64,000 nt of DNA from an uncultured bacterium (GCA_963801165.1 CAWDDT010000005.1:416001-480000); one strand, 5' to 3'. Shown: positions 1 through 41,601, counted from the stretch's first letter. Notes: generated from the letters alone by a model not told the origin. Made by a program: numbers and translations.

Positions 1-53
1 TCGAGGCCCATCATCCCCGTGCCAATCACGCCGTAGCGGATCTTGTCCGTCAT
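1..53 (-). CDS. 5' end of a Gfo/Idh/MocA-family NAD-binding oxidoreductase, running off the left edge (possibly an NAD+-dependent sulfoquinovosidase)
   Basis: Reverse complement reads MTDKIRYGVIGTGMMGL, a Rossmann GxGxxG start, with an AAGGAG RBS just upstream. Not in the ORF track because it is truncated. Confidence 0.7.
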   Translation of the reverse strand, partial: MTDKIRYGVIGTGMMGL

Positions 54-82
54 CACTGTCTCCTTGTGCTCGGCCCGAGCAC

Positions 83-1105
83 CTAGTCAGGAATGCCGAG
101 ATACTTGTTGGTCGTCGCCACGGCCTCGGCACCGGTGGCGTGCATTTCCATCGCGGCGCGGACCGCGTCGATCGTCTCGGGGATCGTCACCGACTCCTGT
201 GGGATGTTGATCCCCCACACGACGTCATCGCCGGAGAGACCCACCATCTCTTCCCACAAGCCGATCTCATACATATCGGCCCGTGGGTACTCCATGTACC
301 GCGCCCACTGGAACAGCGAGGCGTTCGAGTTGAAGCCGTCGGCGATCCGGACGACCTTGATGCGCGGGTAGGCCTTGAACGCTTCGAGAGCTCGGTCTAC
401 CGAGATCTTCGCCTTCGGCGTCGCACACAAAGTGATGATGTGTCCGTGGGTGACCGGGGTGTGGATCAAGAGGCCGGTGGCGTCGACACCCTCCATGATG
501 TTCGACAGGTCGACGGCCTGGTGGTTGGGGATCGGCTCCACCTGGAGCACGTTGGTGAGACCACGGTGCGTATCGCCCGGGTCGGCGACACGGCGGATGA
601 TCGTGATGAATACCTTCTCGACCCCCACAGCCTTGTGGATGGCGTCGACGGCGCGGATCAAGCCGGTGGTGTTACACGAGGTCAGCTTGAGGTAGTCCTT
701 ACCGAGACCCTTCTCGTAGTTGACGGTTCCGTGGAAGAACACATCTGCGACAGATCCTGCTTCGCCGCCCTGGAAGACGGCCTTGACGCCCGCGGCGACA
801 TACTTCTCCTTGTTTTTCGCACCGATCCCGCCGGGGGCGGCGTCGAGCATCACATCGACCTCACCGAGGAGATCGTCGAAGTTCCCCGAGACCGGGATAC
901 CCGCTGCTTCCAGCGCCTTTTCGGCACCGTCCATCGCGGTGAACAGCTTGTAGGGCATACCGCGCGCCGCGAGCGCACGCACCGGCAGCGTTGGAGCGAC
1001 ATCGGCCACACCGACCAACTCCATGTCCTCTTGCCGGGCAACGCCGGCGGCGAGCCGGTTGCCGATCACTCCATACCCGGCAACGCCGACCTTCACCTTG
1101 CTCAT
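83..1105 (-). CDS. Type II (archaeal-like) phosphorylating glyceraldehyde-3-phosphate dehydrogenase family protein
   Basis: GYGVIG Rossmann motif, catalytic SCNTTG, RRVADP and C-terminal QESVTIPETIDA match class II GAPDH rather than bacterial GapA. Confidence 0.88.
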   Translation of the reverse strand: MSKVKVGVAGYGVIGNRLAAGVARQEDMELVGVADVAPTLPVRALAARGMPYKLFTAMDGAEKALEAAGIPVSGNFDDLLGEVDVMLDAAPGGIGAKNKEKYVAAGVKAVFQGGEAGSVADVFFHGTVNYEKGLGKDYLKLTSCNTTGLIRAVDAIHKAVGVEKVFITIIRRVADPGDTHRGLTNVLQVEPIPNHQAVDLSNIMEGVDATGLLIHTPVTHGHIITLCATPKAKISVDRALEAFKAYPRIKVVRIADGFNSNASLFQWARYMEYPRADMYEIGLWEEMVGLSGDDVVWGINIPQESVTIPETIDAVRAAMEMHATGAEAVATTNKYLGIPD

Positions 1106-1118
1106 TGCTGTCTCCTCT

Positions 1119-2531
1119 CTATAGATCGATAACGGGGATACCCCAGCGAGCCGCCAGGGCTTCTAGCTCCTCGCGATAGTCGCCGTACACGATTCCGAAG
1201 TGGTGTTCCAGGCCTTCTCTGGCGATGGTCGCGACGATCTCGGGTGCGGGCACGTCGAACTCGACAACGCCTGCAGTTCCCGAGAATGCAAGCGGTTCTT
1301 CGAGCATCGTACCGCCCCCTATGACCAGCGACTGCATCCCTCCTGCCTGGCTCAGCCGGCAGATCGTCACCCTGCCGGGACGCAGGGCGAACTCATTGAG
1401 CAGGGGCAGCTTCCGGTTCGAGTGAATCGTGCCGACCGCGGAACCGTCGTCAGGCGCCATGTGCATCGGGGCGAGCCCGCAGTGCCACATCACACCCGTC
1501 CTGCCCACGATGTCCATCTCCACCAGATCTGCGACAAAGGCAGGCTCGCCTGCGATGTACTGGAGCAACAGAGCAGTTACGTTTCCATAGACGTCGGCCT
1601 CGCAGGTTCCCGGCGTCCCATCGTCGATGAGCATGCTCTGTGGCGAGCAGGCGGCGCCGCCGAACTCGGTGAAGCACTCAGGCCAGCATCTCGTGGCGAC
1701 ACCGGCCCAGGACCGCTCGTCGATCATCTTCTTCAGCCCGCCGTAGAGGCTCAGCGACCTGCCGAGCGACATCTGGTCGAGGCCGTCGAGATCGCCGAGC
1801 GAGGATTCGGCGCGCCTCCTGGTCGCCGCGATGGTCTCGGCAGGTGTTGCGGCCGCCGCGGCGAACATGTCGGCGAGCTGGCTGCGTTCCACCGTCACCC
1901 CGGTCACCGCGGCAAGCGTCCCCGCGTCGTAGCCGCAGGGGTCGAAGCCGGTTGGCCGATCACCGATGACCCCGATCGTCGTCTCCGCCAGACGGGCGGC
2001 AACACCCGCCGCGGTTGTGGCGGCCGCTGCTGTCGTCTCCCGCGCCGGTCTTCTGCGGCTGGCTTCCTGCGTGATGCCCCGGGAGAGAATCTGCTCGATG
2101 TCGGCAACGGCGCCGGGATCGTCTGCGGCGCGGTGAACGTAGGCGAAGCTGCTCGCCGCCCGCACGAGAGCGAACGCGGCCAGGTTCAACCCGCAGAACG
2201 AGTTGAGCCTCAGCCTCCCTCCGGTCCTGGCCTCGGGGAAAGACCAGATGATGATCGGCGTCTCGAACCTCGCCCCGATTGCCTCGGTCATCGACGAGTC
2301 GGTGAACGAAACCTGGAGCAGCAGCAACGCATCGAGGTCGCCGTCGCTGAATTGCTCTAGTGCCAATTCGGTGCTGGCGGCGTCGAAAAGCAGGTCCGTC
2401 GTCCCGATCAACTCGGCATCGAGACCACCCAGGGTCGCCAGCGCCGCGGCCGCTACCTCTTCTGCGTACGGAACGTCGAACGTGGGGCGGGCAAGCGCCA
2501 GCACGCCGAGTCGTCTCCGGGACCGGGTCAT
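1119..2531 (-). CDS. sqvD: L-fucose-isomerase-like protein, probable sulfoquinovose isomerase (SqvD/SftI type)
   Basis: Motifs RPTFD, GGRLRLNS, RCWPE, CEADVYG, WHCG, HSNRK, FSGT and HFGIVYGD resemble Bacillus SqvD as I recall it. Start moved to ATG 2531 (MTRSRRR); the longer ORF overlaps the transaldolase. Confidence 0.75.
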   Translation of the reverse strand: MTRSRRRLGVLALARPTFDVPYAEEVAAAALATLGGLDAELIGTTDLLFDAASTELALEQFSDGDLDALLLLQVSFTDSSMTEAIGARFETPIIIWSFPEARTGGRLRLNSFCGLNLAAFALVRAASSFAYVHRAADDPGAVADIEQILSRGITQEASRRRPARETTAAAATTAAGVAARLAETTIGVIGDRPTGFDPCGYDAGTLAAVTGVTVERSQLADMFAAAAATPAETIAATRRRAESSLGDLDGLDQMSLGRSLSLYGGLKKMIDERSWAGVATRCWPECFTEFGGAACSPQSMLIDDGTPGTCEADVYGNVTALLLQYIAGEPAFVADLVEMDIVGRTGVMWHCGLAPMHMAPDDGSAVGTIHSNRKLPLLNEFALRPGRVTICRLSQAGGMQSLVIGGGTMLEEPLAFSGTAGVVEFDVPAPEIVATIAREGLEHHFGIVYGDYREELEALAARWGIPVIDL

Positions 2532-2535
2532 GGCA

Positions 2536-3198
2536 CTACTCGTAGGGGGTCTCGTCCCAGAATGACTGGAACTTGGCGAGACCCACGTCGGTGTAGGGAT
2601 GGGCGAACGCATCCTGGAAGACAGGCATCCCTGCGGTGACGATGTCGGCACCGACCACGGCGGAGTTGACTATCTGCCTGGCGTTGCGGGCTGCCGCAAC
2701 GATAATCTCGGTCTCGAAGCCGTATACGTCGCGGATCGCCGCCACTTCGTCGACGAAGTGGGTGATCTCCTCACCGTTGCTCTCCTTCCAACCGATGAAC
2801 GGGGAGACGAACGCCGCCCCCATCCGCATCGCCTGGAGGGCTTGGGCCGCTGAGAAGACCAGGGTGAGATTCGAACGGATGCCCTGGTCGGCAAGCTCGA
2901 AGACTGCCTTGAACCCGGGCTCGGTTGCGGGCAGCTTGATGACGAAGTTGGGTGACATGGCGGAGAGCTTCTTCCCCTCGGCGACCATCGTCTTCCAATC
3001 ATCGAGGTGAGGGTTGACCTCCACCGAGATCGGCTTGTCGGTGCCGTCGAAGATGGTGGCGATCTCGTTGATCACCTTGAGGAACGGCTTGCCCGACACC
3101 TGGACGTGACGGGGGTTGGTCGTGACGCCGTCGATATTCCACATCTCGAGGGCGTACTCGATGTCATCGGTCTTGGCACTGTCGAGGAAAAACTTCAC
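2536..3198 (-). CDS. sqvA: Small transaldolase/FSA family protein, probable 6-deoxy-6-sulfofructose transaldolase (SqvA/SftT)
   Basis: FLDSA, DGVTTNPRH, Schiff-base Lys in VIKLP, SPFIGWKE and AARN. The NPRH Arg, GWKE Trp and RN Arg differ from ordinary TalC/FSA (NPSL, GR.DD) and match the sulfonate-binding Arg-Trp-Arg set of SqvA as recalled. Confidence 0.82.
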   Translation of the reverse strand: MKFFLDSAKTDDIEYALEMWNIDGVTTNPRHVQVSGKPFLKVINEIATIFDGTDKPISVEVNPHLDDWKTMVAEGKKLSAMSPNFVIKLPATEPGFKAVFELADQGIRSNLTLVFSAAQALQAMRMGAAFVSPFIGWKESNGEEITHFVDEVAAIRDVYGFETEIIVAAARNARQIVNSAVVGADIVTAGMPVFQDAFAHPYTDVGLAKFQSFWDETPYE

Positions 3199-3207
3199 GT
3201 TTTGCTC

Positions 3208-4140
3208 CTAACTTGTCGTGAGAGTCTGTAGAACGTTGGCAACCGTCACCTCGCTGACGCGGGTGTTCGATTCGGCGGTGAGGCCGGCGATATGGGGGGT
3301 GAGGACGATGTTGTCGAGCCCGGCGAACTTCAGGGCGCCCTCCTCGGTCAGCGGCTCCTCCTCGAATACGTCGAGCGCCGCCCCCGCGAGATGACCCCGG
3401 CGGACGGCATCGGCGAGGGCTACATCGTCGACGACCCCACCCCGGGACGTGTTGATGACCACAGCAGCGGGTGCCAGCCACGCCAGTGCGGCGGCATCGA
3501 GGATGTGCCGGGTATCGGCGGTGAGCGGGACGTGAATGCTCACTGCGTCGCGGCCGGTGAGCAACGACTTCACCGTGTCGTATCTCGTGATCCCCTGCCA
3601 GACAGGGTCGTCGGCAGCTAGGAAGGGGTCGTATGCGGAGACCGTCATGCCGAGGGCGGTCGCCCGCTCGGCGACGAGCCGAGCGATTTCGCCGAAGCCG
3701 ACGAGAGCCAGGCTCTTGCCCGCTGTCTCCCTGCCCTGGAGGTCCGCCCGTGGCCATGATCCACTCAGCATCCGCACCTTCGAGGCATACGCACCCCGAA
3801 ACAACATGAGAAGGGCGGCGATGACGTACTCGGCAACGGCGACGGCGTTGGCTCCGGTGGCCGGATGGACAGCTACCCCACGCCGGGCACAAGCGTCCAG
3901 ATCGATGTTGTCGAGACCGACGCCGAGCCGGCCGACGACACGCAAGCGCGGGGCAGCATCAAGCAGCTCCTCGTCGACCCTGGTTCGGTTGCGAACGATG
4001 ATCGCCTCGGCTTCGGCGAGCTCGGATAGCAACCGGGATCGGTCATCTACGAGGCCGGGATCGAAAGAAAGACTGAACTTTCCCTGCAACGGCTCGAGAG
4101 CATCTCGGCTCATGAATTCGGATACGACTATCTGTGACAT
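3208..4140 (-). CDS. slcC: D-isomer-specific 2-hydroxyacid dehydrogenase, (S)-sulfolactate dehydrogenase SlcC-like
   Basis: N-terminal IVVSEFM, DPGLVDD, IVRNRT, GRLGVGLDNID, PATGANA and TPHIAGLT.ESN.RVS as in the SlcC subfamily; 310 aa with no SerA ACT domain. Confidence 0.7.
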   Translation of the reverse strand: MSQIVVSEFMSRDALEPLQGKFSLSFDPGLVDDRSRLLSELAEAEAIIVRNRTRVDEELLDAAPRLRVVGRLGVGLDNIDLDACARRGVAVHPATGANAVAVAEYVIAALLMLFRGAYASKVRMLSGSWPRADLQGRETAGKSLALVGFGEIARLVAERATALGMTVSAYDPFLAADDPVWQGITRYDTVKSLLTGRDAVSIHVPLTADTRHILDAAALAWLAPAAVVINTSRGGVVDDVALADAVRRGHLAGAALDVFEEEPLTEEGALKFAGLDNIVLTPHIAGLTAESNTRVSEVTVANVLQTLTTS

Positions 4141-4176
4141 CGAGAAACCTCACTGATCTCAACTTAGACTACTACT

Positions 4177-4188
4177 GGAACCGGTTCC
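4177..4188. promoter_or_regulatory. Candidate LacI-family operator
   Basis: Perfect palindrome GGAACCGGTTCC with central CG between the divergent operons; a related half-site TGGAAACGCG lies near 4279-4288. Confidence 0.55.
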
Positions 4189-4323
4189 GTTTTTCAACCG
4201 GAAATCTACGGCAGCTCTCGTCCTCTGGCAGTACATGGATGGACGTGACTTTGAGACAGCGAGGGTCGTCGTTATTGTTGGAAACGCGTCGGCGCTCGGC
4301 CGGCGCTCAAGGAGGAGGACTCC

Positions 4324-5733
4324 ATGAAGCAACTCAAGTGGTTGCTGCTGGTAGTTGTGTTTGCCATGCTCGCTGCGGCGTGCGGCAACGACAGCTCTGG
4401 GGACACAACGACGGCAGCTCCATCGAATACAACTGCGGCGGCTACAACGACAACTGCAGGCAGTACAGAAACCACAATGGCCGAGACCACGACCACCGCA
4501 GGAATGGTCGATCTCACCGGCACCAAGGTGACGGTGTTTGGTCCCGAAGAGACCGCGGCTGAGGCAGGATCGCTGCAGGCGACCCTCGATCTCTTCGCCG
4601 CACAAACCGGCATAGAGATCGTCTACACCGGTGCTCGCGACGCGTCGGATCAGATCAACGCACAGGTAGCCGGCGGCAACCCGCCGGACATCTTCGTGTT
4701 CCCGCAGCCAGGCAAACTGGCCGACTTCGCCCGGCAGGGTGCTCTGTACCCGCTGCCTGACGATGTGCTGGCAACGGTCGCGGCAAACCAGAGTGATGCG
4801 TGGACTTCGTTCGGCAACGTCGACGGTGTCCAGTACGGCATCCCGACCAAGGCCGACCTCAAGTCGCTCGTCTGGTATCAGCCGGCGCGTTTCGCAGCCG
4901 CCGGCTACACGATCCCGCAGACGTGGGACGAGCTCAAGGCCCTCAGCAACCAGATGATCGCCGACGGCAACACGCCGTGGTGTGTCGGCATCGAGTCCGG
5001 CGCCGCCACCGGGTGGCCGTTCACGGACTGGGTCGAGGATCTGATGCTCCGTTACTACGGGCCCGATGTCTACGACCAGTGGGTCTCGCACGAAGTTCCG
5101 TTCTCGGACCAGCGCGTCATCGACGTGTTCAATCAGATCAGGGACCTCTGGGATACCCCCGGAGCGGTATATGCAGCAGGCGGTTCCATCGCTTCCACCG
5201 CTTTTGGTGACAACGGCGAGCCGCTCGTCAACGGCGACTGCTTCATGCACCGCCAGGCGTCGTTCTTCTCGGCCTTCTTCCCGGATGGGACCCCGGTCGC
5301 CGACGGTAGTGATGGCGCAGTTGACGTCTTCTACTTCCCGGCTGTTGATCCGAACACCCACCCGGTGCTTGGTGCCGGTACGTTGGTCGGTGCGTTCCGC
5401 GACGCTCCCGAGGTGTGGGCAGTGATGAACTACTTCGCCACCTCGGAGTACGGTCAGAACCGGCAGAAGCTGCAGGCACTCTCTAAGGGTGGCGGCGGCG
5501 CACTGTCCGGCTTCCTGTCGCCGGCAACGCAGCAGGACATGAGCGTGTACAACCCGCTCGAGCAGTCGTTCCTCGACATTCTGGCGAGTGCGGATGTTGT
5601 CCGATTCGACGGATCCGACCTGATGCCGACAGCCGTCGGCTCGGGCGCCTTCTGGACCGAAGGAACCAGCTTCATCAATGGCCAGGAGGACGCTGCAGCA
5701 GCAACCGCGGCCATCGATGCGGCGTGGCCGTAA
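4324..5733 (+). CDS. Carbohydrate ABC transporter substrate-binding lipoprotein (AglE/GgtB alpha-glucoside type)
   Basis: GGAGG RBS, lipobox LAAAC, Thr-rich linker, PQPG, KSLVWY, WCVGIESGAATGWP.TDWVED, HRQASF and FDGSDLMP. Confidence 0.9.
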   Translation: MKQLKWLLLVVVFAMLAAACGNDSSGDTTTAAPSNTTAAATTTTAGSTETTMAETTTTAGMVDLTGTKVTVFGPEETAAEAGSLQATLDLFAAQTGIEIVYTGARDASDQINAQVAGGNPPDIFVFPQPGKLADFARQGALYPLPDDVLATVAANQSDAWTSFGNVDGVQYGIPTKADLKSLVWYQPARFAAAGYTIPQTWDELKALSNQMIADGNTPWCVGIESGAATGWPFTDWVEDLMLRYYGPDVYDQWVSHEVPFSDQRVIDVFNQIRDLWDTPGAVYAAGGSIASTAFGDNGEPLVNGDCFMHRQASFFSAFFPDGTPVADGSDGAVDVFYFPAVDPNTHPVLGAGTLVGAFRDAPEVWAVMNYFATSEYGQNRQKLQALSKGGGGALSGFLSPATQQDMSVYNPLEQSFLDILASADVVRFDGSDLMPTAVGSGAFWTEGTSFINGQEDAAAATAAIDAAWP

Positions 5734-5895: not shown

Positions 5896-8004
5896 ATGGA
5901 TCGAGTATTCGCAACATTGATCAGCATCGTGGCCGCGGTCGGCGGTAGCGCGGGGCTGTTCGTCGGAGCCAACAAGCTCTTTGACCTGGCACGAAGCCGG
6001 TACCCGGTCTTTAGCTCCATGATTGGAGCGCTGCTCGGCTTCAGTACCGGGCTCTTGATGTGGGCCAACCGTGTTTCCATAGTGGGCCACGGGCCGCTGG
6101 TCGGTGCCCCGAACCCAACCGGGTTCGTCGCAGCCGTCGACTTCGTGGTGACGCTGGTTGCCAACACCATCGTGCCGACGCTCATCGGTCTGGCCGGGGG
6201 CTGGCTGTACGCCAGGGTGAGCGGGTCGGCCGTCACCTCGACCCAGTACCAGCTCGGTGACCGTGAGGCCGAAGATACGCCCACGACGATGTCGGACAGT
6301 GTCCGGAGGAATCGGTTGCTGGTGGCCATGGCCACCACCGGACTGCTGGGGCTGTGGTTTGCGCTCTTCTACGAGCTGGCCCTGGTGCCGGCGTTCGAGA
6401 TCGGCAAACTCATCATCTGGACGGTTATCGGGCTGGCCATTGCCGCGGCACTCTGGTACACGGGTAAGCGGAGATCGCCGCTCGGAGCCTCACTCGCCCT
6501 CGGCGGAGGCCTCGGTTGGCTCATCGGCACGATGGTCGCCCCCCAACTGGGGGACTTCAAACGGGTGCTGTCTATTGCCGGCATGGATCTAGACGGTGAC
6601 CAGATCTGGACAATTCTGGCGATGGTGATCGGCTTCGTTGCCGTCGGTGCATACATCGGCCTCAAGCCCGTCGCCAGATATCCAACGAGAGACAGAATCG
6701 CCCGGAATTCGCGCGTGTACATATTCCTCGGCCCGGCGCTGCTATTCATCTTCGCCTCGCTGATGCTGCCTGCGTTGCGCACCATCTGGCTGTCGTTCCT
6801 TGGTCCCGACGCGACGCTGCCGCCCACCGAGCGTGCCGCCGGTGGCGTTGACAAGCTTGTCGGGTTGACCAACTACAAGGACGTGTTCAGCGACCCGAAC
6901 AACTGGAATCTGAGCAACTGGTCCGACATCTTTGGCAGTACGCTGTTCTGGGGCGCGATCATCCTGATCGTAGGCGGGGTCATAGCCGGTATCGTGCTGG
7001 GTCGGCAGCGCGGGATGTCGTTCGAGAAATCAGGCGGCTCGCTGGCCCCGATCTCAATCGGTGCGTTCCTGCTGCTCACCTCCCTGTTCGCCGCATTGCG
7101 GGGAACCGTGTTCAACAACCTGTGGTGGGTGGTTGCGGTCACCACCCTGGCAAGCGTGTTCGGTTTGGCAGTCGCCGTGCTGGCGGACAGGGCCAAAATG
7201 GAGAACATCGCCAAATCGCTGATCTTCATGCCGATGGCGATCTCGTTTGTCGGCGCCGGCATCATATGGCGGTTCGTCTACAACGCCAGGGAAGTTCGTC
7301 AGGATCAGACGGGTGTGCTGAATGCCATCTGGGTCGCTCTTGGCCAGCTGTCAAACAGCGGTTGGCCCAAGGTCCTAGCGGCATTGCTGCTTGCAGCCGT
7401 CATCGCAGGCCTGGGTTACATGAGCTGGCGGGGTTATAAGGCAGGGGCGACCGGGCTTTTCGCCGGCTCGCTGGTAACGGCGCTGCCGTTCCTGTACATC
7501 CTGGTACGGCTCCTCACCAACGGTATCGGCGGGTTCTCGGTAGCCGACGACGGCACGATACTCAAAGAGACGATCCTCGTTCGTGAGTCCAGCCCGTACA
7601 ACAACCTGTTCCTGATGGTGGTCCTGATCTGGATCCAGACCGGATTCACGATGGTCATCTTCTCGGCAGCGATCAAGGCGGTCCCCTCTGATCTGATCGA
7701 AGCGTCGAAGGTTGACGGCGCTACCGAGTCGCAGACGTTCTGGCGGGTCACCATCCCGCAGATCGCACCGACGATCGGCGTGGTGATAACAACGCTGATC
7801 GTGTTGGTGATGAAGGTCTTCGACATCGTCAAGGTCATGACAAACGGGAACTTCGACACCCAGGTACTAGCCAACGCCATGTTCACAACCGCCTTCACGA
7901 ACTTCAACTTCGGTAAAGGTTCGGCGCTGGCGGTGCTGATCCTCCTATCGGTGCTCCCGGTGATGATCTTGAACATACGCCGCATGCAGAAGGAGGCCCG
8001 CTGA
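5896..8004 (+). CDS. Sugar ABC transporter permease (AglF-like), enlarged with extra TM segments
   Basis: IFMPMAISFVGAGIIWRF, WIQTGF and EAA loop (EASKVDGA); 702 aa. Confidence 0.88.
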   Translation: MDRVFATLISIVAAVGGSAGLFVGANKLFDLARSRYPVFSSMIGALLGFSTGLLMWANRVSIVGHGPLVGAPNPTGFVAAVDFVVTLVANTIVPTLIGLAGGWLYARVSGSAVTSTQYQLGDREAEDTPTTMSDSVRRNRLLVAMATTGLLGLWFALFYELALVPAFEIGKLIIWTVIGLAIAAALWYTGKRRSPLGASLALGGGLGWLIGTMVAPQLGDFKRVLSIAGMDLDGDQIWTILAMVIGFVAVGAYIGLKPVARYPTRDRIARNSRVYIFLGPALLFIFASLMLPALRTIWLSFLGPDATLPPTERAAGGVDKLVGLTNYKDVFSDPNNWNLSNWSDIFGSTLFWGAIILIVGGVIAGIVLGRQRGMSFEKSGGSLAPISIGAFLLLTSLFAALRGTVFNNLWWVVAVTTLASVFGLAVAVLADRAKMENIAKSLIFMPMAISFVGAGIIWRFVYNAREVRQDQTGVLNAIWVALGQLSNSGWPKVLAALLLAAVIAGLGYMSWRGYKAGATGLFAGSLVTALPFLYILVRLLTNGIGGFSVADDGTILKETILVRESSPYNNLFLMVVLIWIQTGFTMVIFSAAIKAVPSDLIEASKVDGATESQTFWRVTIPQIAPTIGVVITTLIVLVMKVFDIVKVMTNGNFDTQVLANAMFTTAFTNFNFGKGSALAVLILLSVLPVMILNIRRMQKEAR

Positions 8005-8975
8005 TGACCGCAGTCGACGGACGCGCCATGGCCGAGAGGGCGGCAAGCTCCGAGGGTGGCGTCGGGAAACGGATCTACCGCTTCCTGAAGGCAATCCCCA
8101 CGTGGGTCCTTTGGATGCTGGTCATCCTGTGGACCATCCCCAGCTTGGGCCTGCTTGTCAACAGCTTCAGGCCCCGCGACGCCCAAAGGGCGACCGGCTG
8201 GTGGACCACGTTCACCGGCCACGGCGGCGGGTTGACCCTGGCCAACTACAAGGAGGTGCTGAGCGCAGGAGCGACGGGTGGTCTTGGGCAAGCGTTGCTC
8301 AACTCGATGGCGATCGCGATCCCTGCGACCATCATCCCGATTGCAGTAGCGGCCTTCGCCGCATACGCATTCGCCTGGATCGACTTCCGGGGGCGGGAGT
8401 GGCTGTTCATCGCAACGGTCGCCTTGATGTCGATCCCGCTCCAGGTGGCGCTGATCCCGCTGCTCACCACCTACTCGGGCGGTGCGCACTGGACAATCCC
8501 GCTGCTTCACCGAACGCTGACGTTCTTCCCCGACTTCTCCTTATCGGGGACGGTGACGGCAGTGTGGTTGACGCACACCGGATTCGCCTTACCGTTCGCC
8601 ATCTTCCTGCTGCACAACTACATATCCGGCCTACCGGCAGATGTGTTCGAGTCGGCGCGGATCGATGGCGCTGATCACTACAGGATCTTCTGGAGTCTCG
8701 TAGTCCCGCTGTCGGTTCCCGTGCTTGCGGCGTTTGCGATCTTCCAGTTCCTCTGGACTTGGAACGACTACCTGATCGCCTTGACGATGATCGGAGGTAA
8801 TGGCCCAGCCTTCCCGATAACGGTCAAGATCGCCTCGCAGGCGGGCTCGTTCGGTCAGAACGAGCACTTGCTGACGGCGGGTGCGTTCGTCTCGACCGTG
8901 GTACCGCTGGTGGTGTTCTTCTCGCTGCAGCGATACTTCGTCAGAGGGATCCTGGCCGGGTCGGTCAAGGGATAG
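8004..8975 (+). CDS. Sugar ABC transporter permease (AglG-like)
   Basis: AAYAFAW, ESARIDGA, QFLWTWND and LQRYFVRGILAGSVKG; 1-nt overlap with the upstream stop. Confidence 0.9.
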   Translation: MTAVDGRAMAERAASSEGGVGKRIYRFLKAIPTWVLWMLVILWTIPSLGLLVNSFRPRDAQRATGWWTTFTGHGGGLTLANYKEVLSAGATGGLGQALLNSMAIAIPATIIPIAVAAFAAYAFAWIDFRGREWLFIATVALMSIPLQVALIPLLTTYSGGAHWTIPLLHRTLTFFPDFSLSGTVTAVWLTHTGFALPFAIFLLHNYISGLPADVFESARIDGADHYRIFWSLVVPLSVPVLAAFAIFQFLWTWNDYLIALTMIGGNGPAFPITVKIASQAGSFGQNEHLLTAGAFVSTVVPLVVFFSLQRYFVRGILAGSVKG

Positions 8976-33284: not shown

Positions 33285-36200
33285 TCAGCCGGATGGTTCC
33301 CCGTCCTGATCACGCCCGTTATAGATCTGGCTCGCCAGCACCAGACCGATCCCGAACATGGTCAGCAGCGCACCCCATAGAGCCAGGACATCCACGTCGA
33401 ACCCGGTCAGAGGCAAACCGGCCTGAAAGCCGAAGTTGGCGTCGAGGACATGGACGCCACCGGTGAGATCCACCGTGGTAACCATATCGATGACCCCGTC
33501 CCGATCCCACGTAGGTCGCAGATGGCCGGGAACGGATGCGTAGTCGATCTGGACCACATATGTTCCGGGGAACAGATCGTCGAACCCGTACGACCCGCCC
33601 CCGTCCGTGCCGGTGAATGCGACAAGACTGCCGAGCTCGTCATAGAGGTTGACCAGGACCGCGGACACACCATCCTCCCCGGCATCCACCACCCCGTTGC
33701 CGTTTCCGTCGACCCACACCTTCGAACCGACCCGGAGCATCAGGGCGATCCCGAAGTCCGCCGCTGCCGTACCCGCCGGATCCACGACGATTGGCACGTC
33801 CGTGGCAGTTGTCGGGCTCATCCCGAGAGGCACAGACAGAGGATCGATCGCCGTGTCGTATATGCCCGGGGGCAGATTCTCGATCCGCCAGGCTCCGAAC
33901 GCGTCGGTCTCGCCAGCAAGCAAGACGTCGCCCGACTGATCTCGCCAGACCACGTCGATCCCCACCGAGGCGACCCCGACCTCGGCGTCGCCGCGCAACT
34001 CGTCCCCGTCGCGATCGTTCCAAACGGTCCCGCCTATCGTGCCGGTGCCGGTCGTCCTGAAGTCGATGCCGGCAACGGTCGCTCCTGCGCCCAGAGTCAC
34101 CGGAATCGGGTTGTCGCCGGTCAGCGCCAGCCCATCGGGAAGCGAAGCCTCGTCGAACTCGATCTCGTAGAACCCCGACGGCAGACCGGGTACGTGATAC
34201 GTACCGTCGGTTCCGGTCACGGCGGTGAAGACCGCATCGGTACCGGTGGGGGCGTCCGGACCGAGGTACGTGATGGTGACGACCCCGTCCCGGACACCGG
34301 GTTCCCCGGTTTGCCGGTCGCCGTCGCTATCGACATCGATCCATATCGTGCCGGCAGCCGTTCCGTCGCCCCTCAGCCCGAAATCGATCTCGCGATGAGT
34401 CTCGTAGGGGCCGATAACCAGCTGGGTCGCGCCGTCCGTCACCGTATCCGGATCAGATGCGGGACCCACTCCTGGGGGCACGGCGGTACCGTCGATCGCC
34501 ACCAGGCAGGTGCCCGGGGGCAGGTCGGTGAAGAGATAGCCGCCCGTGCCGTCCGTCGTTGCCGCCCAGGTGACGTCGTCACCGGTCGCCAATGACCCGT
34601 CCCACCCCGCCCATGTGAGAGACACCGGGACGTCGCTCATTCCCGGCTCCCGCGGCGACTGCATGCCGTCGGCGTCGAGATCCCAGAAGACGGAGTCGCC
34701 AACGGTACCGCCACCCGCATAACCGAAATCGATCGCGGTCTCGGTATCACCCGGGTTGACACCGGCTATGACCGTCCGCCCGTCCCCGTTGCCGTCGGGG
34801 TCCCCGCTGTTGCCCAGCCCGTCGGCGATGCCCGACACGACGGCAACCTCGAAGTTGCCCGCCGGGAGCCCTGTGGCGACATAGCCGCCGTCGAGGTCGG
34901 AGGTGGTCGCTACCGCAACGAAATCGTCTCCGCCTCCGGCGACCCCGTCGCCTCCCAGCCACGTCACCGTGATACCGGCATCAGGCACCCCGGGCTCCCC
35001 GGCGTCCGTGCTCCCGTCGGCGTCGACGTCGAGCCACACCAGGTCGCCTATCTGCGCGGTGCCGTGATAGCCGAAGTCGCTGCCGTGGTCGGTGGCGCCG
35101 CCCGCCAGGGTGACATCGACACCCGAGTTGTGGTCGCCGTCCTCGTCATAGGTGTTGTCTGCCCGTGAGACGATCACACCGGTGATCGCGATGCGATATG
35201 TCCCCGGTGGCAGGTTGGCAAACAGGTAGCTGCCGTCTCCATCGGTCGCCAGGTCGTAGATCTCGTCGTCGGCCGTACCGATCACGTTGTCGCCGCCGGC
35301 CGCGATCATCTCGACGTCCTGGCCCGGGATCCCCGGCTCATCGGCGCCCACCGTCCCGTCGCCGTTCTGGTCGAACCAGACGAGATCACCGATCGACCCG
35401 GTTCCGTAGTAGCCGAAATCAGCGCTCAGGTGGGTCTCGCCTTCGGCCACAGCAAATAGGGTCCGGTCGTCGAGCACGCCGTCTTCGTCATTGGAACCGA
35501 CCATCCCCGAGGGGAGCGATGCCGGGTCGACAACAACGGCGTAGTTGCCGGGCGGCAGATTCGACACAAGGTAGCTGCCGTCGGGGCCTGTCGTGGCGGT
35601 GAAGGTCTCGTCGTCTGCGGTGGCGTGGATCCCGTCGGGGCCCGCCCAGATCACGTCGACCACCACACCCTCGATCCCGTACTCGGCCGTACCGGGCGCG
35701 CCGTCACCGTCCTGGTCGAACCAGATCAAGTCGCCGATGTCGGCACCGCCGTCGTACCCGAAGTCCTGGGTATCGTCGGTGGCGCCGCCGGCAAGCGTCG
35801 TCACCGATCGGTGCAAGGTCGATAGACCGTCGTAGTCGTGGGTTGGGATTACGCCGGTTGGGAGCGAACCCGGATCGACCGCCACCCCATAACCGCCCGC
35901 GGGCAGACCGGAGACGCCGTAGTTGCCGTCGATATCGGTTGTCGTGTCCAGAGTGAAGTCATCGGCCGTTGCCGGCGTCCCGTCGACACCGAACCATGTC
36001 ACCGCAACGTCGACAGCGGGGAGACCGGGCTCGGCCACGTCCTGGACACCGTCCGAATCGATATCGAGCCAGATGTAGTCGCCGATCGATCCGGTGCCTT
36101 CGTACCCGAAGTCGGCGGTGAGATGGATCTCGTCGACCGTCAGACCCGCGACGAGGCTGACCCCATCGAGGCCTCCGTCTTCGTCATACGTCTGCACCAA

Positions 36201-39200
36201 GCCGCCCGGGACTCCCGAGTCGATCACCACCCGGTAGTCACCCGCCGGGAGGTCCGCGAGAAGAAAGCCGCCGCCGGCACCGGTCGTAGTTGCGAACGAC
36301 AAGTCGTCGCCGTTGCCGAACGTACCGTCGAGACCGGCGTAAGTGAGAGCCACGGCCACTCCCGGGATGCCCGGTTCCCCGGCGTCGAGGGCACCGTTGC
36401 CGTCGAGGTCCCACCAGACGATGTCACCGATTGAGGCCGTACCGTGAAAACCGAAGTCGGCGGTGAGATGGGTCTCCCCGTCGCTGAGGGTGACCACCGC
36501 CGTTGCATCGCTCCCCCCGTCCTCGTCAAACGTGTTGGGGGCGGCCTCAGGAAGCCCCGCGAGGATCGTCACCTGGTACTCGCCGGGCGGCATGTTGGCG
36601 AATGTGTACAGCCCGTCTGAGTCGGTTGAGGTCAAGAACGGCTCGTCGTCACCACCCCCGAGCACACCATCCTCGCCGGGCCATGTCAGCTGAACGGGCA
36701 CGCCGACGATCCCCGGTTCGGTGCCATCCTGCACACCGTCTCCGTCGCGGTCGAGCCACACAAAGTCGCCGAGGGTGCCAGTGCCGGCATAGCCGAAGTC
36801 CTCGTCCGGGTCGACGGTACCGCCCCCAAGGATGACGACTGTGGACCCCGGCGTCCCCACCCCGTCGGTGTCGTACGTGGCCCCCATCCCGGCGGGCACC
36901 GTCGCATCGTCGATGTCGATCGTGTAGATGCCTCCGGGGAGACGGGAGATCAGGAACCCGCCGGAGCCGTCTGTCGCCGTCGTGTAGACGACGTCGTCTC
37001 CGCCCGGAACACCGTCCAGGCCGAGCCACGTGACGGTCAGCGTGACGCCCTCCAAGCGATACTCGGCGCCGTCGAGCATCCCATCCCGGTCGCTGTCGAA
37101 CCAGACCGTGCCACCGATGCTCCCGCTTCCGGTGTAGCCGAAGTCGACGTCGAGCTTGTCCTCGCTCTCCCCCAGCGGGCCCGGTCCCCAGCCGCCGTCC
37201 GGACTCAGCGTCCCCCCGTCGAGGTCGTATGAGGGGACAAAGCCGGCCGGGATGTCGGAGGCATCCACCACCACGGTGTACGAGCCACCCGGCAGGTGCT
37301 CGACCAGAGCTGAGCCGTCGCTTGCAGTGGTCACGAGATGCGGCTCGTCGTCGCCGCTGACCACCCCATCGAGACCCAGATACGTCATTGTGAGATCGAC
37401 GCCCGGGAACGGCGGCTCGCCTGCGTCCCACACGCCGTCGGCGTCGACGTCGAACCACACTGCGCTCCCGATGGACGCCAGATCGAGCTCGACTTGCACC
37501 GTATCGGCCGTCACGTTGTCGTAGTTGCGATACGTGAAGGTCGGATTTGCGGCCCGCGCCGCAGCCGCTACCGCGTAGTACGACGTGATGTCCGCAGTAT
37601 TGGTTGCCTCCCTGCTCCCGTCGTCTTCATCGCTCGAGTTGAGACTCGCATCCACCGTCGCCTCATAGGTTCGGGTCAGCGAAGCGCCGGGGGCGAGCGG
37701 GCCGGGATCGGTCCAGGTGATGGTCCCGCCGACACCATCACCCGGAGTCGGGTCGGCCACCCACACCCCGCCGCCGGGGACGGGCAGCGTGACGGCGAGA
37801 CCTTCGGGCAAGGTGTCGACGATCACCAGGTCATACGCCGCTGATGTGTGGCTTGCGCTCGAGCCCGTTGCGACGATCGTGAACGACAAATTCTCGCCGG
37901 GGACCGCCCGGCGATAGTCGCCATCTCCGACCTGGCCGGCTACGTCCTTGTCGATCGTCAATCGCGGCTCGACAACGGTGACCGTGTCCGTCGCAGGCCC
38001 GACGGCGACATCGAACGAAGACGGGAGCGGTACCGACGACGGCGTTCCCGCGATCTTGTCAGTCTGGTTGCCGTACACCGACGCCGAGCTCACCCGGGTG
38101 TTGCCCGCCACTCCGGAATCCAGCAGGTGCGCCCGGTACTCGATCGTGACGACTCGCTCTTCTCCGGTTGCACTCGAAATGTCGATGTCCCCGAAGAAGA
38201 ACGCGGCAGTCGTCGATCCCGCAATACCGATCTCGGTTGCGGTGACCATCGGGTCACACGGCCCGCCTCCCATGTCACAGTTCGACGAAACGAGCCCGTC
38301 GAACTCCATCCCGGCGGGCAGCGAGTCGATCACAGTGGCGTCATACATGATGGTTCCGGGTGGCATCGTGACGTCGAGGGTGTAGGTGACGACGTCGCCG
38401 ATCGTTGCCGACCCGGGATCGACATCGCGCGACAACCCGGCGAGCGGGGTGTTGAGGATGCGCCCGGCTGAGGCGTGGTAGCCGGTCCCTGCCGAACGCT
38501 CTACCGCGGCGGCCCCGGCTATCGACGAACCATCGACGGTCACCGTGTTGACAAAGGTCGTGCTGACGACAACCGGATCGTCGATCGTGACCTCATACGT
38601 GCGAGCCAGCGACGACGCTGCCGCAAGCGATGCGACCGACCAGGTTATCGTGCCGCCGACGCCGTCACCGGGTGTGCCGTCGGCCGCCCACACGCCGCCG
38701 TCGGGCACCGGGATGGTGAGCGTCACTCCCTCGGGAAGCGTGTCGACGATCTCCAGGTCATGGGCGGTGCCGACGCTGGTGGTCGCCGGGTTCGTGACGG
38801 TGAGGGTGTAATCGACCGTCTCGTTGCCCACAACCGTGCCGTTGTTGCCGATGCTGTCCACGCTCGTCTTGGCGATGCTCAGCAGCGGCTCCACCACAGT
38901 CGTGCTGACCGAGGTTCCCTTCGTGTGAAAAACGGCGTTCTGGTCGAGCCAGGTGAACGCCGCGGAGTTGCCGATCGATGTGCCCCGGCTGTTGGCCGGG
39001 ACATCGATAACCCGCGCCACCAGAGTGAGCACGAGGGTGTCGTTCCCTGTCCCGGGCGCGTTTCTGTAAGACGGATCGGGAAAGTCGATGGTGACGCTGT
39101 CGGCCGCTCCGTCCTCCGTCAACACCAGAGCTTCCTCACCGTCGAAGGTGTGGCTCGACGACACGAGATCGAGGTTGGCAGGGAGATCATCGAACAGCCG

Positions 39201-40889: not shown

Positions 40890-41010
40890 ATTCACCTCAC
40901 GGCGGCGGGAGATTCCGGTTACTCCGACCACCATCCCTGTCGGCATGGACGAGGCGGAGATAACGCCAGGAACACGGGGGCGACACCGTGGGGTGCGCTT
41001 GGCGACGGGG

Positions 41011-41601
41011 CTAGACGGACATACCCCGGATCAGGAACTCGACTGCGATTTCTGCGATCTCATGGACCTGGCCCTTGGGGTCGGCGGTGTCCATGATGGT
41101 CCGGCCAGCGCCCATGATGATTTGGAACATGAGCTGGCCGGCTACCCGGTGCGGCAGGTCCCGGAAGACACCTGCAGCGACACCGTCCGCGTACACCCCG
41201 GCCAGCGCCCCAACCAGACCGGCATGAGCCGCGGCCACCCGCTGTTGCGCGTCGTCGGAGAGTTGCATGGCTTCGGTGTGAAGGATGAGACCGAGGTGGT
41301 CCAGCCCTACGAACTCCACCGTCCTGGTCCCAAGCTCCCGCATCCGTGCGACCGGATCGGCGTCAGCCGGGATGCCGCCGACGATCTCAGCAATGAGCGC
41401 GGGAAGCCGCTCTTCGACGAGCTGCACGAGAAGGTCCTCGGTACTTTCGAAGTACTCGTAGAACGTGGTGCGCCCGATCCCGATCTCGGCAGCCAGATCC
41501 GCATGCGTAGTGTCCCGAAAGCCGTGGTTCACGAACGACTCGAGCGCCGCGTCGAATAGGGCAACCCGTGTCTCTTCACGTGAAGACCGGCGACTCGGCA
41601 T
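41011..41601 (-). CDS. TetR/AcrR family regulator
   Basis: GFRDTT.ADLAAEIGIGRTTFYEYF; ATG 41601 follows GGAGG. Confidence 0.88.
   Translation of the reverse strand: MPSRRSSREETRVALFDAALESFVNHGFRDTTHADLAAEIGIGRTTFYEYFESTEDLLVQLVEERLPALIAEIVGGIPADADPVARMRELGTRTVEFVGLDHLGLILHTEAMQLSDDAQQRVAAAHAGLVGALAGVYADGVAAGVFRDLPHRVAGQLMFQIIMGAGRTIMDTADPKGQVHEIAEIAVEFLIRGMSV

Follow-up and report, generated by a model that had tools for sequence, protein, structure and literature searches.

A probable operon for complete sulfoquinovose breakdown in an Acidimicrobiia-type actinobacterium, with a type II GAPDH homolog in the place of a sulfolactaldehyde dehydrogenase

The sulfofructose transaldolase pathway for the breakdown of sulfoquinovose (SQ), known as sulfo-TAL or sulfo-SFT, was defined in Bacillus and gut Firmicutes; its authors also listed Actinobacteria, next to other phyla, as having 'individual genomes' with candidate clusters (PMC7491151). 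'Extended' sulfo-TAL clusters that include SuyAB have been predicted for Thermotogae and Chloroflexi (PMC9594981). The usual view is a division of labour, in which the organism that cleaves SQ excretes a C3 sulfonate for a second organism to desulfonate (PMC7491151, PMC13436972, PMC12421959). A bacterium that combines sulfosugar cleavage with biomineralisation has been called unusual, and in that case the sulfolactaldehyde (SLA) dehydrogenase was not located (PMC12421959). Here we describe a putative eight-gene operon that begins in a stretch of 64,000 nucleotides from an uncultured bacterium (G000:C5:416001-480000; the whole stretch is called the window) and runs on into the DNA to its left, taken as C5:400001-420000 (locus L001). 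The host is an Acidimicrobiia-type actinobacterium. The genes, all on the minus strand, are in order slcC-like, sftT, sftI-like, gap2, sqgA, suyA, suyB and comC-like, and the genes of an ABC importer diverge from them. We consider it likely that this operon encodes the complete breakdown of SQ in one organism, as an 'extended' sulfo-TAL pathway followed by desulfonation.

In the proposed pathway the sulfoquinovosidase SqgA would free SQ from its glycosides, the isomerase would convert SQ to sulfofructose (SF), and the transaldolase SftT would move C1-C3 of SF onto glyceraldehyde-3-phosphate (GAP), giving fructose-6-phosphate and (S)-SLA. GAP2, a homolog of type II GAP dehydrogenase (GAPDH), may then convert SLA to (S)-sulfolactate, probably via a thioester and 3-sulfolactoyl phosphate, and PGK2, a phosphoglycerate kinase (PGK) paralog encoded elsewhere in the genome, could turn 3-sulfolactoyl phosphate into sulfolactate and ATP. 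The SlcC-like and ComC-like dehydrogenases would invert the stereocentre through sulfopyruvate to give (R)-sulfolactate, which SuyAB would split into pyruvate and sulfite. SftT, SqgA, SuyA and SuyB are assigned by close orthology to characterised or solved proteins; we infer the substrate of the isomerase, the GAP2 step and the substrate of the transporter. What is new is the occurrence in one operon of a GH188 glycosidase, the transaldolase route and SlcC/ComC/SuyAB, with a GAPDH look-alike at the place of the SLA dehydrogenase. A literature search for SQ degradation in Acidimicrobiia found nothing, although the supplementary tables of PMC7491151, PMC10755693 and PMC12421959 may list such clusters.

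The sulfo-TAL clusters of Bacillus aryabhattai SOS1 and B. megaterium (SftI/SqvD, SftT/SqvA, SftD/SlaB, SftG) share with the window's operon an orthologous SF transaldolase, a FucI-superfamily isomerase directly beside it and a sulfoquinovosidase in the cluster. Unlike them, the operon has neither an SLA dehydrogenase of the aldehyde dehydrogenase (ALDH) type (SftD/SlaB) nor an SLA reductase (SftR/YihU), a type II GAPDH homolog standing in that place instead. Its sulfoquinovosidase is a GH188 SqgA and not a GH31 enzyme, its importer is of the ABC type, and its isomerase lies far below the equivalog cut-off for SftI. Sulfolactate would not be its end product, SlcC-like and ComC-like dehydrogenases and SuyAB being co-encoded. 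No gene for DUF4867 (SqvB/SftX) was found in the window's genome, in a search that is uninformative because it gave no match in 14 control genomes either.

As in the extended clusters of Chloroflexi and Thermotogae, SftT, the isomerase and SuyAB are encoded together, an arrangement implying that all of the SQ carbon is used and that sulfite is released. In a Chloroflexota cluster (L098), GH31 and MFS genes diverge from an SftI-SftT-SuyA-SuyB-LarA-like series. In this cluster the glycoside hydrolase is of family GH31, the transporter is of the MFS type and suyB is followed by a gene for a LarA-like racemase, and neither GAP2 nor an SlcC/ComC pair is present, whereas the window's version has a putative two-dehydrogenase racemase, SqgA, an ABC importer and GAP2. 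LarA-type 'malate racemase' homologs stand directly after SftT or SuyAB in Chloroflexota genomes and in metagenome contigs (L098:8387-13239, L095:147-2156, L097:4706-6606 and the metagenome loci L127, L130, L134, L136, L159 and L176), and a LarA-like gene adjoins SftT in 3 of 5 SftT-positive genomes (401 sampled). These homologs are candidates for a one-enzyme sulfolactate racemase that would replace SlcC/ComC; a literature search for a LarA-type sulfolactate racemase found none.

The tandem sulfofucolytic-sulfolactate sulfolyase pathway of Paracoccus wurundjeri shows the same coupling of sugar cleavage to desulfonation in one organism, and a classical SLA dehydrogenase is missing there too (PMC12421959). 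The upstream module in the window differs in being sulfo-TAL and not Entner-Doudoroff, all steps are placed in one operon, and the host is a Gram-positive actinobacterium. Sulfolactate degradation by SlcC/ComC/SuyAB in Chromohalobacter salexigens and Paracoccus uses the same four gene families, the window's genes being 49-71% identical to those of Paracoccus and Sinorhizobium. Genes for a TTT transporter, a SuyZ exporter or a transhydrogenase are not linked to the operon, in contrast to Paracoccus-type suy systems.

Positions 1 to 4140 of the window hold four complete, co-oriented minus-strand open reading frames (ORFs) and the first 56 bases of a fifth gene that runs off the left edge (Table 1). 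The gaps between the five genes are 9, 4, 13 and 26 bp, close to the spacing of 4-29 bp given for five co-oriented genes in the original prediction, which had read this region as the sulfo-TAL operon of an actinobacterium. As a coding test, third- and second-position GC were compared per frame in local DNA of 63% GC. Three of the four frames show a third-position GC of 0.76-0.86 against 0.38-0.47 at the second position. The isomerase frame failed this filter and was accepted on its family matches and on the public gene call P0001, whose length it equals when started at the ATG at 2531. Pfam and NCBIfam models place the four complete genes in TAL_FSA, Fucose_iso_C/SftI, type II GAPDH and 2-Hacid_dh, and the motifs named in the original prediction were all found (TTNPRH, GWKES and ARN in the transaldolase; GGRLRLNS and HSNRK in the isomerase). 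It had also proposed to retrieve the contig left of position 1. There the fifth gene continues as sqgA and is followed by suyA, suyB and a comC-like gene, and because the operon runs on into these last three it is read as an extended, desulfonating pathway. The sulfo-TAL call, supported by the match to an SF transaldolase and its conserved residues, had understated the locus. The accompanying claim that automated annotation would miss the pathway is supported as well: public sources call the isomerase nothing more specific than 'fucose isomerase', 'L-fucose isomerase-like' or 'hypothetical'.

Compared with all sequences in the PDB, SftT matched best the three entries of the structurally solved SF transaldolase BmSF-TAL (261-266 bits; 8bc3, 265.7 bits, E 2.5e-78). 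Ordinary small transaldolases gave 133-157 bits, the next match after BmSF-TAL being 1vpx (156.6 bits), and fructose-6-phosphate aldolases (FSA) at most 82 bits (81.5). The NCBIfam model fsa_talC_mipB scored 186.8 bits, below its cut-off of 246. Identity to BmSF-TAL is about 57% in an alignment read by eye. PMC11659671 gives D6, E61 and K89 of BmSF-TAL as catalytic, N111 and S133 as sugar-orienting, and W138 with a 'WAR' motif as the sulfonate motif; these residues align with D6, E60, K88, N110, S132 and W137 of SftT. Of the WAR motif only W138 is numbered there, and the A and R positions were placed by us; A-A-A-R168-171 of SftT, aligned with an A-A-L-R stretch of BmSF-TAL, is our reading of it. 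By this close orthology to a structurally solved enzyme, the 220-residue protein is predicted to be an SF transaldolase, in agreement with the original assignment to the sulfonate type and not to TalC/FSA. A search of a plasmid collection with SftT, aimed at the B. megaterium cluster, returned only matches of at most 44% identity, annotated fsa.

The product of the fifth gene is a Gfo/Idh/MocA protein with strong matches to 8qc3 (340 bits), 8zn9 (331 bits) and 8qc2 (326 bits), the next oxidoreductase reaching 90 bits. The entry 8zn9 carries only the name 'oxidoreductase' in the PDB; 8QC3/8QC5/8QC6 are ArSqgA and 8QC2/8QC8 are FlSqgA, the founding NAD-dependent sulfoquinovosidases of GH188 (PMC10755693). 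All eight ligand residues named for SqgA (K107, Y136, R166, L170, K172, E189, H193 and H321; PMC10755693) are kept, as read by eye from the alignment. Nothing essential sets the protein apart from the enzyme of Arthrobacter sp. AK01 (PMC10755693), whose catalytic residues it retains along with the sulfonate triad R166/L170/K172. We assign the fifth gene, by its close orthology to characterised or solved proteins, as a putative GH188 sulfoquinovosidase (SqgA). Genes for SqgA have already been reported in sulfo-SFT clusters (PMC10755693).

The isomerase has a single NCBIfam match, to NF048012, 'sulfoquinovose isomerase' SftI (255 bits, E 1e-75; cut-off 700). Its Pfam match to Fucose_iso_C (27.3 bits) falls under the cut-off of 29.3, and a comparison with solved structures found no relative. 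The gene lies 4 bp downstream of sftT, and the order is the same in all syntenic loci. These matches support membership in a wider SftI-like branch of the FucI superfamily, below the equivalog cut-off. A syntenic ortholog scores 266 bits on NF048012, and five roughly 50%-identical paralogs that stand in other contexts reach 252-282, so the assignment to SQ rests on context; the conversion of SQ to SF is proposed from the family and from the position beside sftT. The enzyme had earlier been named SqvD. The motifs and the SftI-like family stand, whereas the motifs do not prove specificity for SQ, since paralogs from non-SQ contexts score equally. A large second tier of SftI-like isomerases occurs in Acidimicrobiia, 51-57% identical to the window's (L032:12291-13727, L076, L074; proteins P0051-P0120), and some of these stand directly after GAP2-PGK2.

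An isomerase only distantly related to characterised SftI (255 against 700 bits) might also belong to a cluster that acts on another sulfosugar or sulfonated glycoside, for example derivatives of sulfofucose or sulforhamnose, instead of SQ. The importer's binding protein, which has no relative of known specificity, would leave room for this, and PMC12421959 describes a sulfofucose pathway feeding SlcC/ComC/SuyAB in Paracoccus. However, all the SQ contacts that have been named for ArSqgA, among them Glu189 as ligand of the C4-OH, are conserved in SqgA, and SftT has the same sugar-orienting residues as the SF enzyme; the known sulfofucose route uses Entner-Doudoroff-type enzymes, none of which is present in the operon region scanned. 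We regard a substrate other than SQ as very improbable.

SuyB is 65% identical to the suyB product of Cupriavidus pinatubonensis and 67% to that of Paracoccus, with up to 71% across these and Sinorhizobium mexicanum; the 12 plasmid-borne relatives lie at 60-71% identity, after which identity drops to 42%. In C. pinatubonensis, suyB stands after hpsN, hpsO, a transporter gene and a dehydrogenase gene (the hpsNOP-suyAB cluster), and the Paracoccus relative is followed by a 'sulfate exporter family' gene. Both neighbourhoods are published suyAB contexts. The small subunit SuyA has no Pfam match and is 51% identical to its C. pinatubonensis counterpart. Orthology to characterised or solved proteins predicts that the pair of 94 and 393 residues is the sulfolactate sulfo-lyase SuyAB.

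The SlcC-like protein matches Pfam 2-Hacid_dh_C (168 bits) and 2-Hacid_dh, and its nearest solved structures are D-3-phosphoglycerate dehydrogenases; the NCBIfam model PGDH gives 277 bits, below its cut-off of 454. On a plasmid of Paracoccus seriniphilus the order is suyAB, a TTT transporter, a 'hydroxyacid dehydrogenase', an 'Ldh family oxidoreductase' and an exporter. The SlcC-like protein is 56% identical over 307 residues to this hydroxyacid dehydrogenase and 58% identical to the product of a gene adjoining suyAB in S. mexicanum. The ComC-like protein (Ldh_2, 309 bits) is 50% identical to the Ldh neighbour of P. seriniphilus and 49-50% across Paracoccus and S. mexicanum, and its best NCBIfam match is L-sulfolactate dehydrogenase (182 bits; cut-off 500). 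The same four genes (slcC-like, comC-like, suyA and suyB) stand together in S. mexicanum, and PMC9594981 describes close homologs of SlcC and ComC in Paracoccus suyAB neighbourhoods. The gene that annotation would call SerA fits an SlcC-type partner of suy clusters, as originally predicted, because it is 56-58% identical to the dehydrogenase beside suyAB in these proteobacteria; the SlcC-like and ComC-like calls follow from orthologs in the same position there. By the sequence rules for the stereocentre, we infer, a D-specific dehydrogenase would fit (S)-sulfolactate, which is the sulfonate isostere of D-3-phosphoglycerate. In two proteobacterial loci the suyAB clusters (L083:9746-12709, L084:13009-15155) are followed by NAD(P) transhydrogenase genes, which would fit the NADH/NADPH imbalance of an SlcC/ComC racemase; none is linked in the window's operon.

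The recurrence of the locus was followed in a scan seeded with GAP2, using one genome per species (79 loci). The SQ block occurs in 15 of these, all Acidimicrobiia assemblies: six have all eight genes and the importer, eight are ended by contig edges, and one (L016) is without suyAB-comC. In this last locus slcC-like, sftT, sftI, gap2 and sqgA occupy L016:1258-6400, and no suyAB or comC was seen in about 9 kb beyond. Since the first scan had been seeded with GAP2, it was repeated from SftT. Metagenomes yielded 80 SftT-seeded loci, 17 of them with SftT of at least 80% identity and nine extending at least 1.7 kb past sftT; GAP2 follows the isomerase in 9 of the 9 close SftT loci that reach far enough, and it is fixed in the operon in every locus covering that position. 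With orthologs called at E of at most 1e-60, SftT was found in 2 of 401 genomes sampled from the class, namely the window's genome and one genome of the same family that carries the same block. The SQ trait is rare and patchy in the class. The gene arrangement is not due to chance, as the same block recurs in other loci.

A chance gathering of ordinary central-metabolism paralogs (FSA/TalC, fucose isomerase, GAPDH and SerA) without any sulfonate role would explain why generic models match (fsa_talC_mipB 186.8 bits, PGDH 277 bits, type II GAPDH 375 bits). Yet the FSA and PGDH matches lie below their cut-offs of 246 and 454 bits, the matches to SF-TAL, SqgA and SuyAB are far stronger, and the eight-gene order is conserved across many assemblies. 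This explanation is already contradicted by the SF-TAL, SqgA and SuyB matches, and we give it practically no weight.

Near-identical DNA, covering at least half of the sampled words of the stretch, is present in runs labelled salt-marsh and soil metagenomes. Three metagenome runs cover all 30 bins of the stretch, mostly at 99% likeness or more, and the best one may be the source sample. A metatranscriptome run (X20) holds one 256-nt contig on window 2045-2300, in the isomerase gene, the other 28 of 30 bins being empty; this contig marks presence in an RNA library and is not proof of transcription.

GAP2 scores 375 bits on NF003251 (cut-off 185), 287 bits on TIGR01546 (cut-off 233) and 210-241 bits against four structures of archaeal type II phosphorylating GAPDH (2czc, 1cf2, 2yyy, 1b7g). 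It shares with these the fold family, the catalytic Cys and His (SCNTTG, THGH) and the RR motif. In contrast to the archaeal enzymes, the GAP2 clade has PNHQAVD where they have PSHHGPD, and an Asp (Asp35) where they have Lys after strand 2; it is accessory to type I GAPDH, and its usual partner is a PGK without one substrate-site Arg. PNHQ and the Asp are found in 72 of 72 bacterial-clade sequences, and all four archaeal structures differ. We take the Asp to be an NAD-type and the archaeal Lys an NADP-type signature, and PSHH to be an anion-site motif. A role of GAP2 as the source of NADPH for ComC was considered and rejected because in all 72 sequences Asp stands at the Lys position of the NADP-using archaeal enzymes.

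GAP2 is single-copy in the window's genome, where a type I GAPDH that passes its cut-off (442 bits) is also encoded, next to a canonical PGK (473 bits). The second, divergent PGK, PGK2 (352 bits), is encoded at C7:74911-76092 and is followed by split transketolase halves without GAP2 alongside (G000:C7:72956-76092, equal to L087:7000-10092); relatives have GAP2-PGK2-TKn-TKc in series. In PGK2, HQGD takes the place of the SHLGRP of the genome's canonical PGK, and the SHLGRP Arg is gone in 54 of 59 PGK2 sequences, the other five being not determinable. Among 72 full-length GAP2 homologs, a count that leaves out eight partial loci, 56 are directly followed by a PGK paralog, 13 lie in SQ operons and three stand elsewhere. 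Most PGK-linked copies sit with LarA-type proteins passing malate-racemase models and with tartrate-dehydrogenase-like and split transketolase genes. In each of the five GAP2-PGK2 genomes tested there is, in addition, a type I GAPDH that passes its cut-off and a canonical PGK with a higher score, so the GAP2-PGK2 pair is accessory to glycolysis. In five SQ-operon genomes PGK2 is always present, and the GAP2 adjacent to it is intact in two, broken in one and absent in two; it is also absent in the window's genome. This distribution would fit a single GAP2 serving both contexts, with PGK2 acting in trans.

Over the 20 kb around the operon, the ORFs scanned include no ALDH gene of the Aldedh family, and no homolog of known SLA reductases was seen there; we take the latter to be of the HIBADH/YihU type. 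The original prediction had remarked that an aldehyde-dehydrogenase or reductase step was absent from the visible part, which is confirmed and now extends to the whole operon. GAP2 is the only unassigned oxidoreductase of the operon and the only candidate with aldehyde-oxidising chemistry, and SLA (OHC-CHOH-CH2-SO3-) is isosteric with GAP. We put the chance that GAP2 oxidises SLA at about even.

The same operon could also be a sulfo-TAL and SuyAB operon in which GAP2 is an ordinary phosphorylating GAPDH that manages the triose-phosphate or acceptor GAP pool, SLA being oxidised by an unlinked ALDH. GAP2 indeed scores above the type II GAPDH equivalog cut-off (375 against 185 bits), keeps the catalytic Cys and His and the RR motif, and has no SQ-specific substitution; GAP is a co-substrate of SftT (PMC7491151). 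An unlinked SLA-oxidising enzyme is conceivable because the Chloroflexota extended cluster L098 has no linked SLA dehydrogenase. Against this, the genome already has a type I GAPDH-PGK pair, and all five GAP2-PGK2 genomes likewise hold the canonical pair, so that the clade is not housekeeping. The anion-site motif differs from the four archaeal structures in 72 of 72 members, the partner PGK2 has no SHLGRP Arg in 54 of 59 sequences, and GAP2 is fixed in the operon at every locus covering its position. On balance we think an ordinary GAPDH role unlikely.

Beyond the SQ operon, the GAP2 module is tied to sulfonate genes in further settings, making three separate arrangements: the SQ operon, LarA-like/SuyAB islands, and the metagenome contig L119. 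In the islands, six loci of Ilumatobacteraceae/Acidimicrobiales, a LarA-like gene, suyB and suyA diverge from GAP2-PGK2, and the whole is flanked by unrelated genes (Table 1). Their SuyB proteins fall inside the SuyB group because they are 58-59% identical to SuyB of C. pinatubonensis. Such an island could convert SLA to pyruvate, sulfite and ATP. On contig L119 (L119:1589-11513) the genes are a sulfate-exporter-family gene, GAP2, PGK2, a gene of unknown function, SftT (75% identity), a GH4 NAD/Mn glycosidase and a LarA-like gene, and no SftI-like gene was detected. Since its GAP2 is only 49% identical to the window's, it represents a separate recruitment. The GH4 enzyme on this contig may be a third kind of sulfoquinovosidase.

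A more tentative proposal goes further, and we hold it to be somewhat less probable than SLA oxidation by GAP2 as such. GAP2 would be a phosphorylating SLA dehydrogenase that forms 3-sulfolactoyl phosphate, from which PGK2 would transfer the phosphate to ADP. The subsequent glycolysis-related step would have its counterpart in the SerA-like SlcC, and in sister lineages LarA-type proteins would serve as a one-enzyme sulfolactate racemase that feeds SuyAB. A literature search turned up no mention of sulfolactyl or sulfolactoyl phosphate, of a sulfolactate kinase or of a sulfolactate racemase.

Several results count against the pathway as proposed, or against the part given to GAP2 in it. The isomerase scores below the NF048012 equivalog cut-off, and that model does not separate it from paralogs of other contexts. 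GAP2 passes an NCBI equivalog model for true GAPDH. No position was found at which at least 12 of the 13 SQ copies differ from the PGK-linked copies, the SQ-operon copies are nested among the PGK-linked ones in the GAP2 tree without a long separating branch, and most PGK-linked contexts are not those of sulfonate genes. PGK2 itself lies outside the SQ operon. Genes for sulfite export or oxidation are not linked, and a search of the genome for PF03601 gave no match. Nor was a gene for SqvB/DUF4867 or a mutarotase seen, in a search that was uninformative.

The importer genes, of the carbohydrate ABC type, are separated from the operon by a divergent region of 183 bp. The binding protein is syntenic in related loci at 54-60% identity, permease 1 is syntenic as well, and permease 2 is 67-79% identical. 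In a comparison that included the family of the SQ-glycerol binder, the best PDB match of the binding protein was a chitin-oligosaccharide binder at only 56 bits, which for that reason speaks neither for nor against specificity for SQ. Uptake of SQ or an SQ-glycoside is proposed from gene position. An ORF scan of the window and its left flank found no ATPase or regulator gene linked to the operon.

The divergent region contains the palindrome ACGGAACCGGTTCCA, whose 12-base core has a single exact occurrence in the whole genome of 4.55 Mb. The 15-mer has one exact match in the window, where 0.23 matches at up to two mismatches would be expected by chance. All 10 intergenic regions compared have the palindrome upstream of the slcC-like gene, eight of them with the exact core. 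It appears operator-like and goes with the operon; we take it to resemble operators of the LacI family. A copy with one mismatch, GGTACCGGTTCC, stands between sqgA and suyA (G000:C5:414919, L001:14919), possibly by chance because it is absent from this gap in 10 of 10 related loci. A promoter and terminator scan of L001:11600-20000 gave no promoter-like and three terminator-like sites, not above shuffled sequences.

Two further features were noted outside the operon. Downstream of the operon, a few genes past its end, L001:8498-10482 encodes an AmmeMemoRadiSam system that comprises a radical SAM enzyme and a Memo-like protein B, and an open frame of about 2580 codons with coding-like third-position GC occupies window 33285-41030 on the minus strand.

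Table 1. Features of the operon and its surroundings (window positions unless a locus is named)
Feature	Position	Strand or orientation	Size, proposed role and basis
SlcC-like D-2-hydroxyacid dehydrogenase, first gene of the operon	3208..4140	-	310 aa; proposed (S)-sulfolactate dehydrogenase; Pfam and suy-cluster orthology
Sulfofructose transaldolase, SftT/SqvA ortholog	2536..3198	-	220 aa; PDB 8bc3 match and key residues
SftI/SqvD-like aldose-ketose isomerase, FucI superfamily	1119..2531	-	470 aa; proposed SQ to SF; family and context
GAP2, bacterial-clade type II GAPDH homolog	83..1105	-	340 aa; proposed sulfolactaldehyde dehydrogenase
sqgA start, putative GH188 NAD-dependent sulfoquinovosidase	1..56 (whole gene C5:414974-416056 = L001:14974-16056)	-	PDB SqgA matches
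suyA, 94-aa ORF	L001:14573-14857	operon, left of window	overlaps suyB start
suyB, 393-aa UxaA-family protein	L001:13398-14579	operon, left of window	GD_AH_second and GD_AH_C
comC-like gene, last in the operon	L001:12393-13388	operon, left of window	Ldh_2 family
Operator-like palindrome	4176..4190	no strand	in the divergent promoter region
ABC importer solute-binding lipoprotein	4324..5733	+	Pfam SBP_bac_1, 81 bits
ABC permease 1, long N-terminal membrane extension	5896..8004	+	Pfam BPD_transp_1 at residues 530-692
ABC permease 2	8004..8975	+	Pfam BPD_transp_1, 65 bits
LarA-like/suyBA versus GAP2-PGK2 islands	L023, L025, L026, L027, L029, L036 (e.g. L026:6961-12267)	divergent	

SQ is an abundant plant sulfosugar, with a yearly production in the range of billions of tonnes, and here the glycosidase, the sugar-cleaving and the desulfonating steps are placed in a single operon. 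Survey criteria for sulfo-TAL demand the isomerase, the transaldolase and either SlaB or YihU (PMC13372026), and surveys on these criteria would score the window's cluster as incomplete. GAP2 offers a concrete candidate for the 'missing' SLA dehydrogenase of tandem pathways without SlaB/GabD, of the kind described in PMC12421959. If GAP2 is phosphorylating, the pathway would contain an ATP-yielding step found in no described sulfoglycolytic pathway; sulfoglycolysis would gain substrate-level phosphorylation, a sulfonate copy of the glycolytic GAPDH/PGK step. In that case the GAP2-PGK2 pair, which is widespread in bacteria, would act as a general module on aldehydes of the type OHC-CHOH-CH2-X(-), with sulfonate or carboxylate as X.

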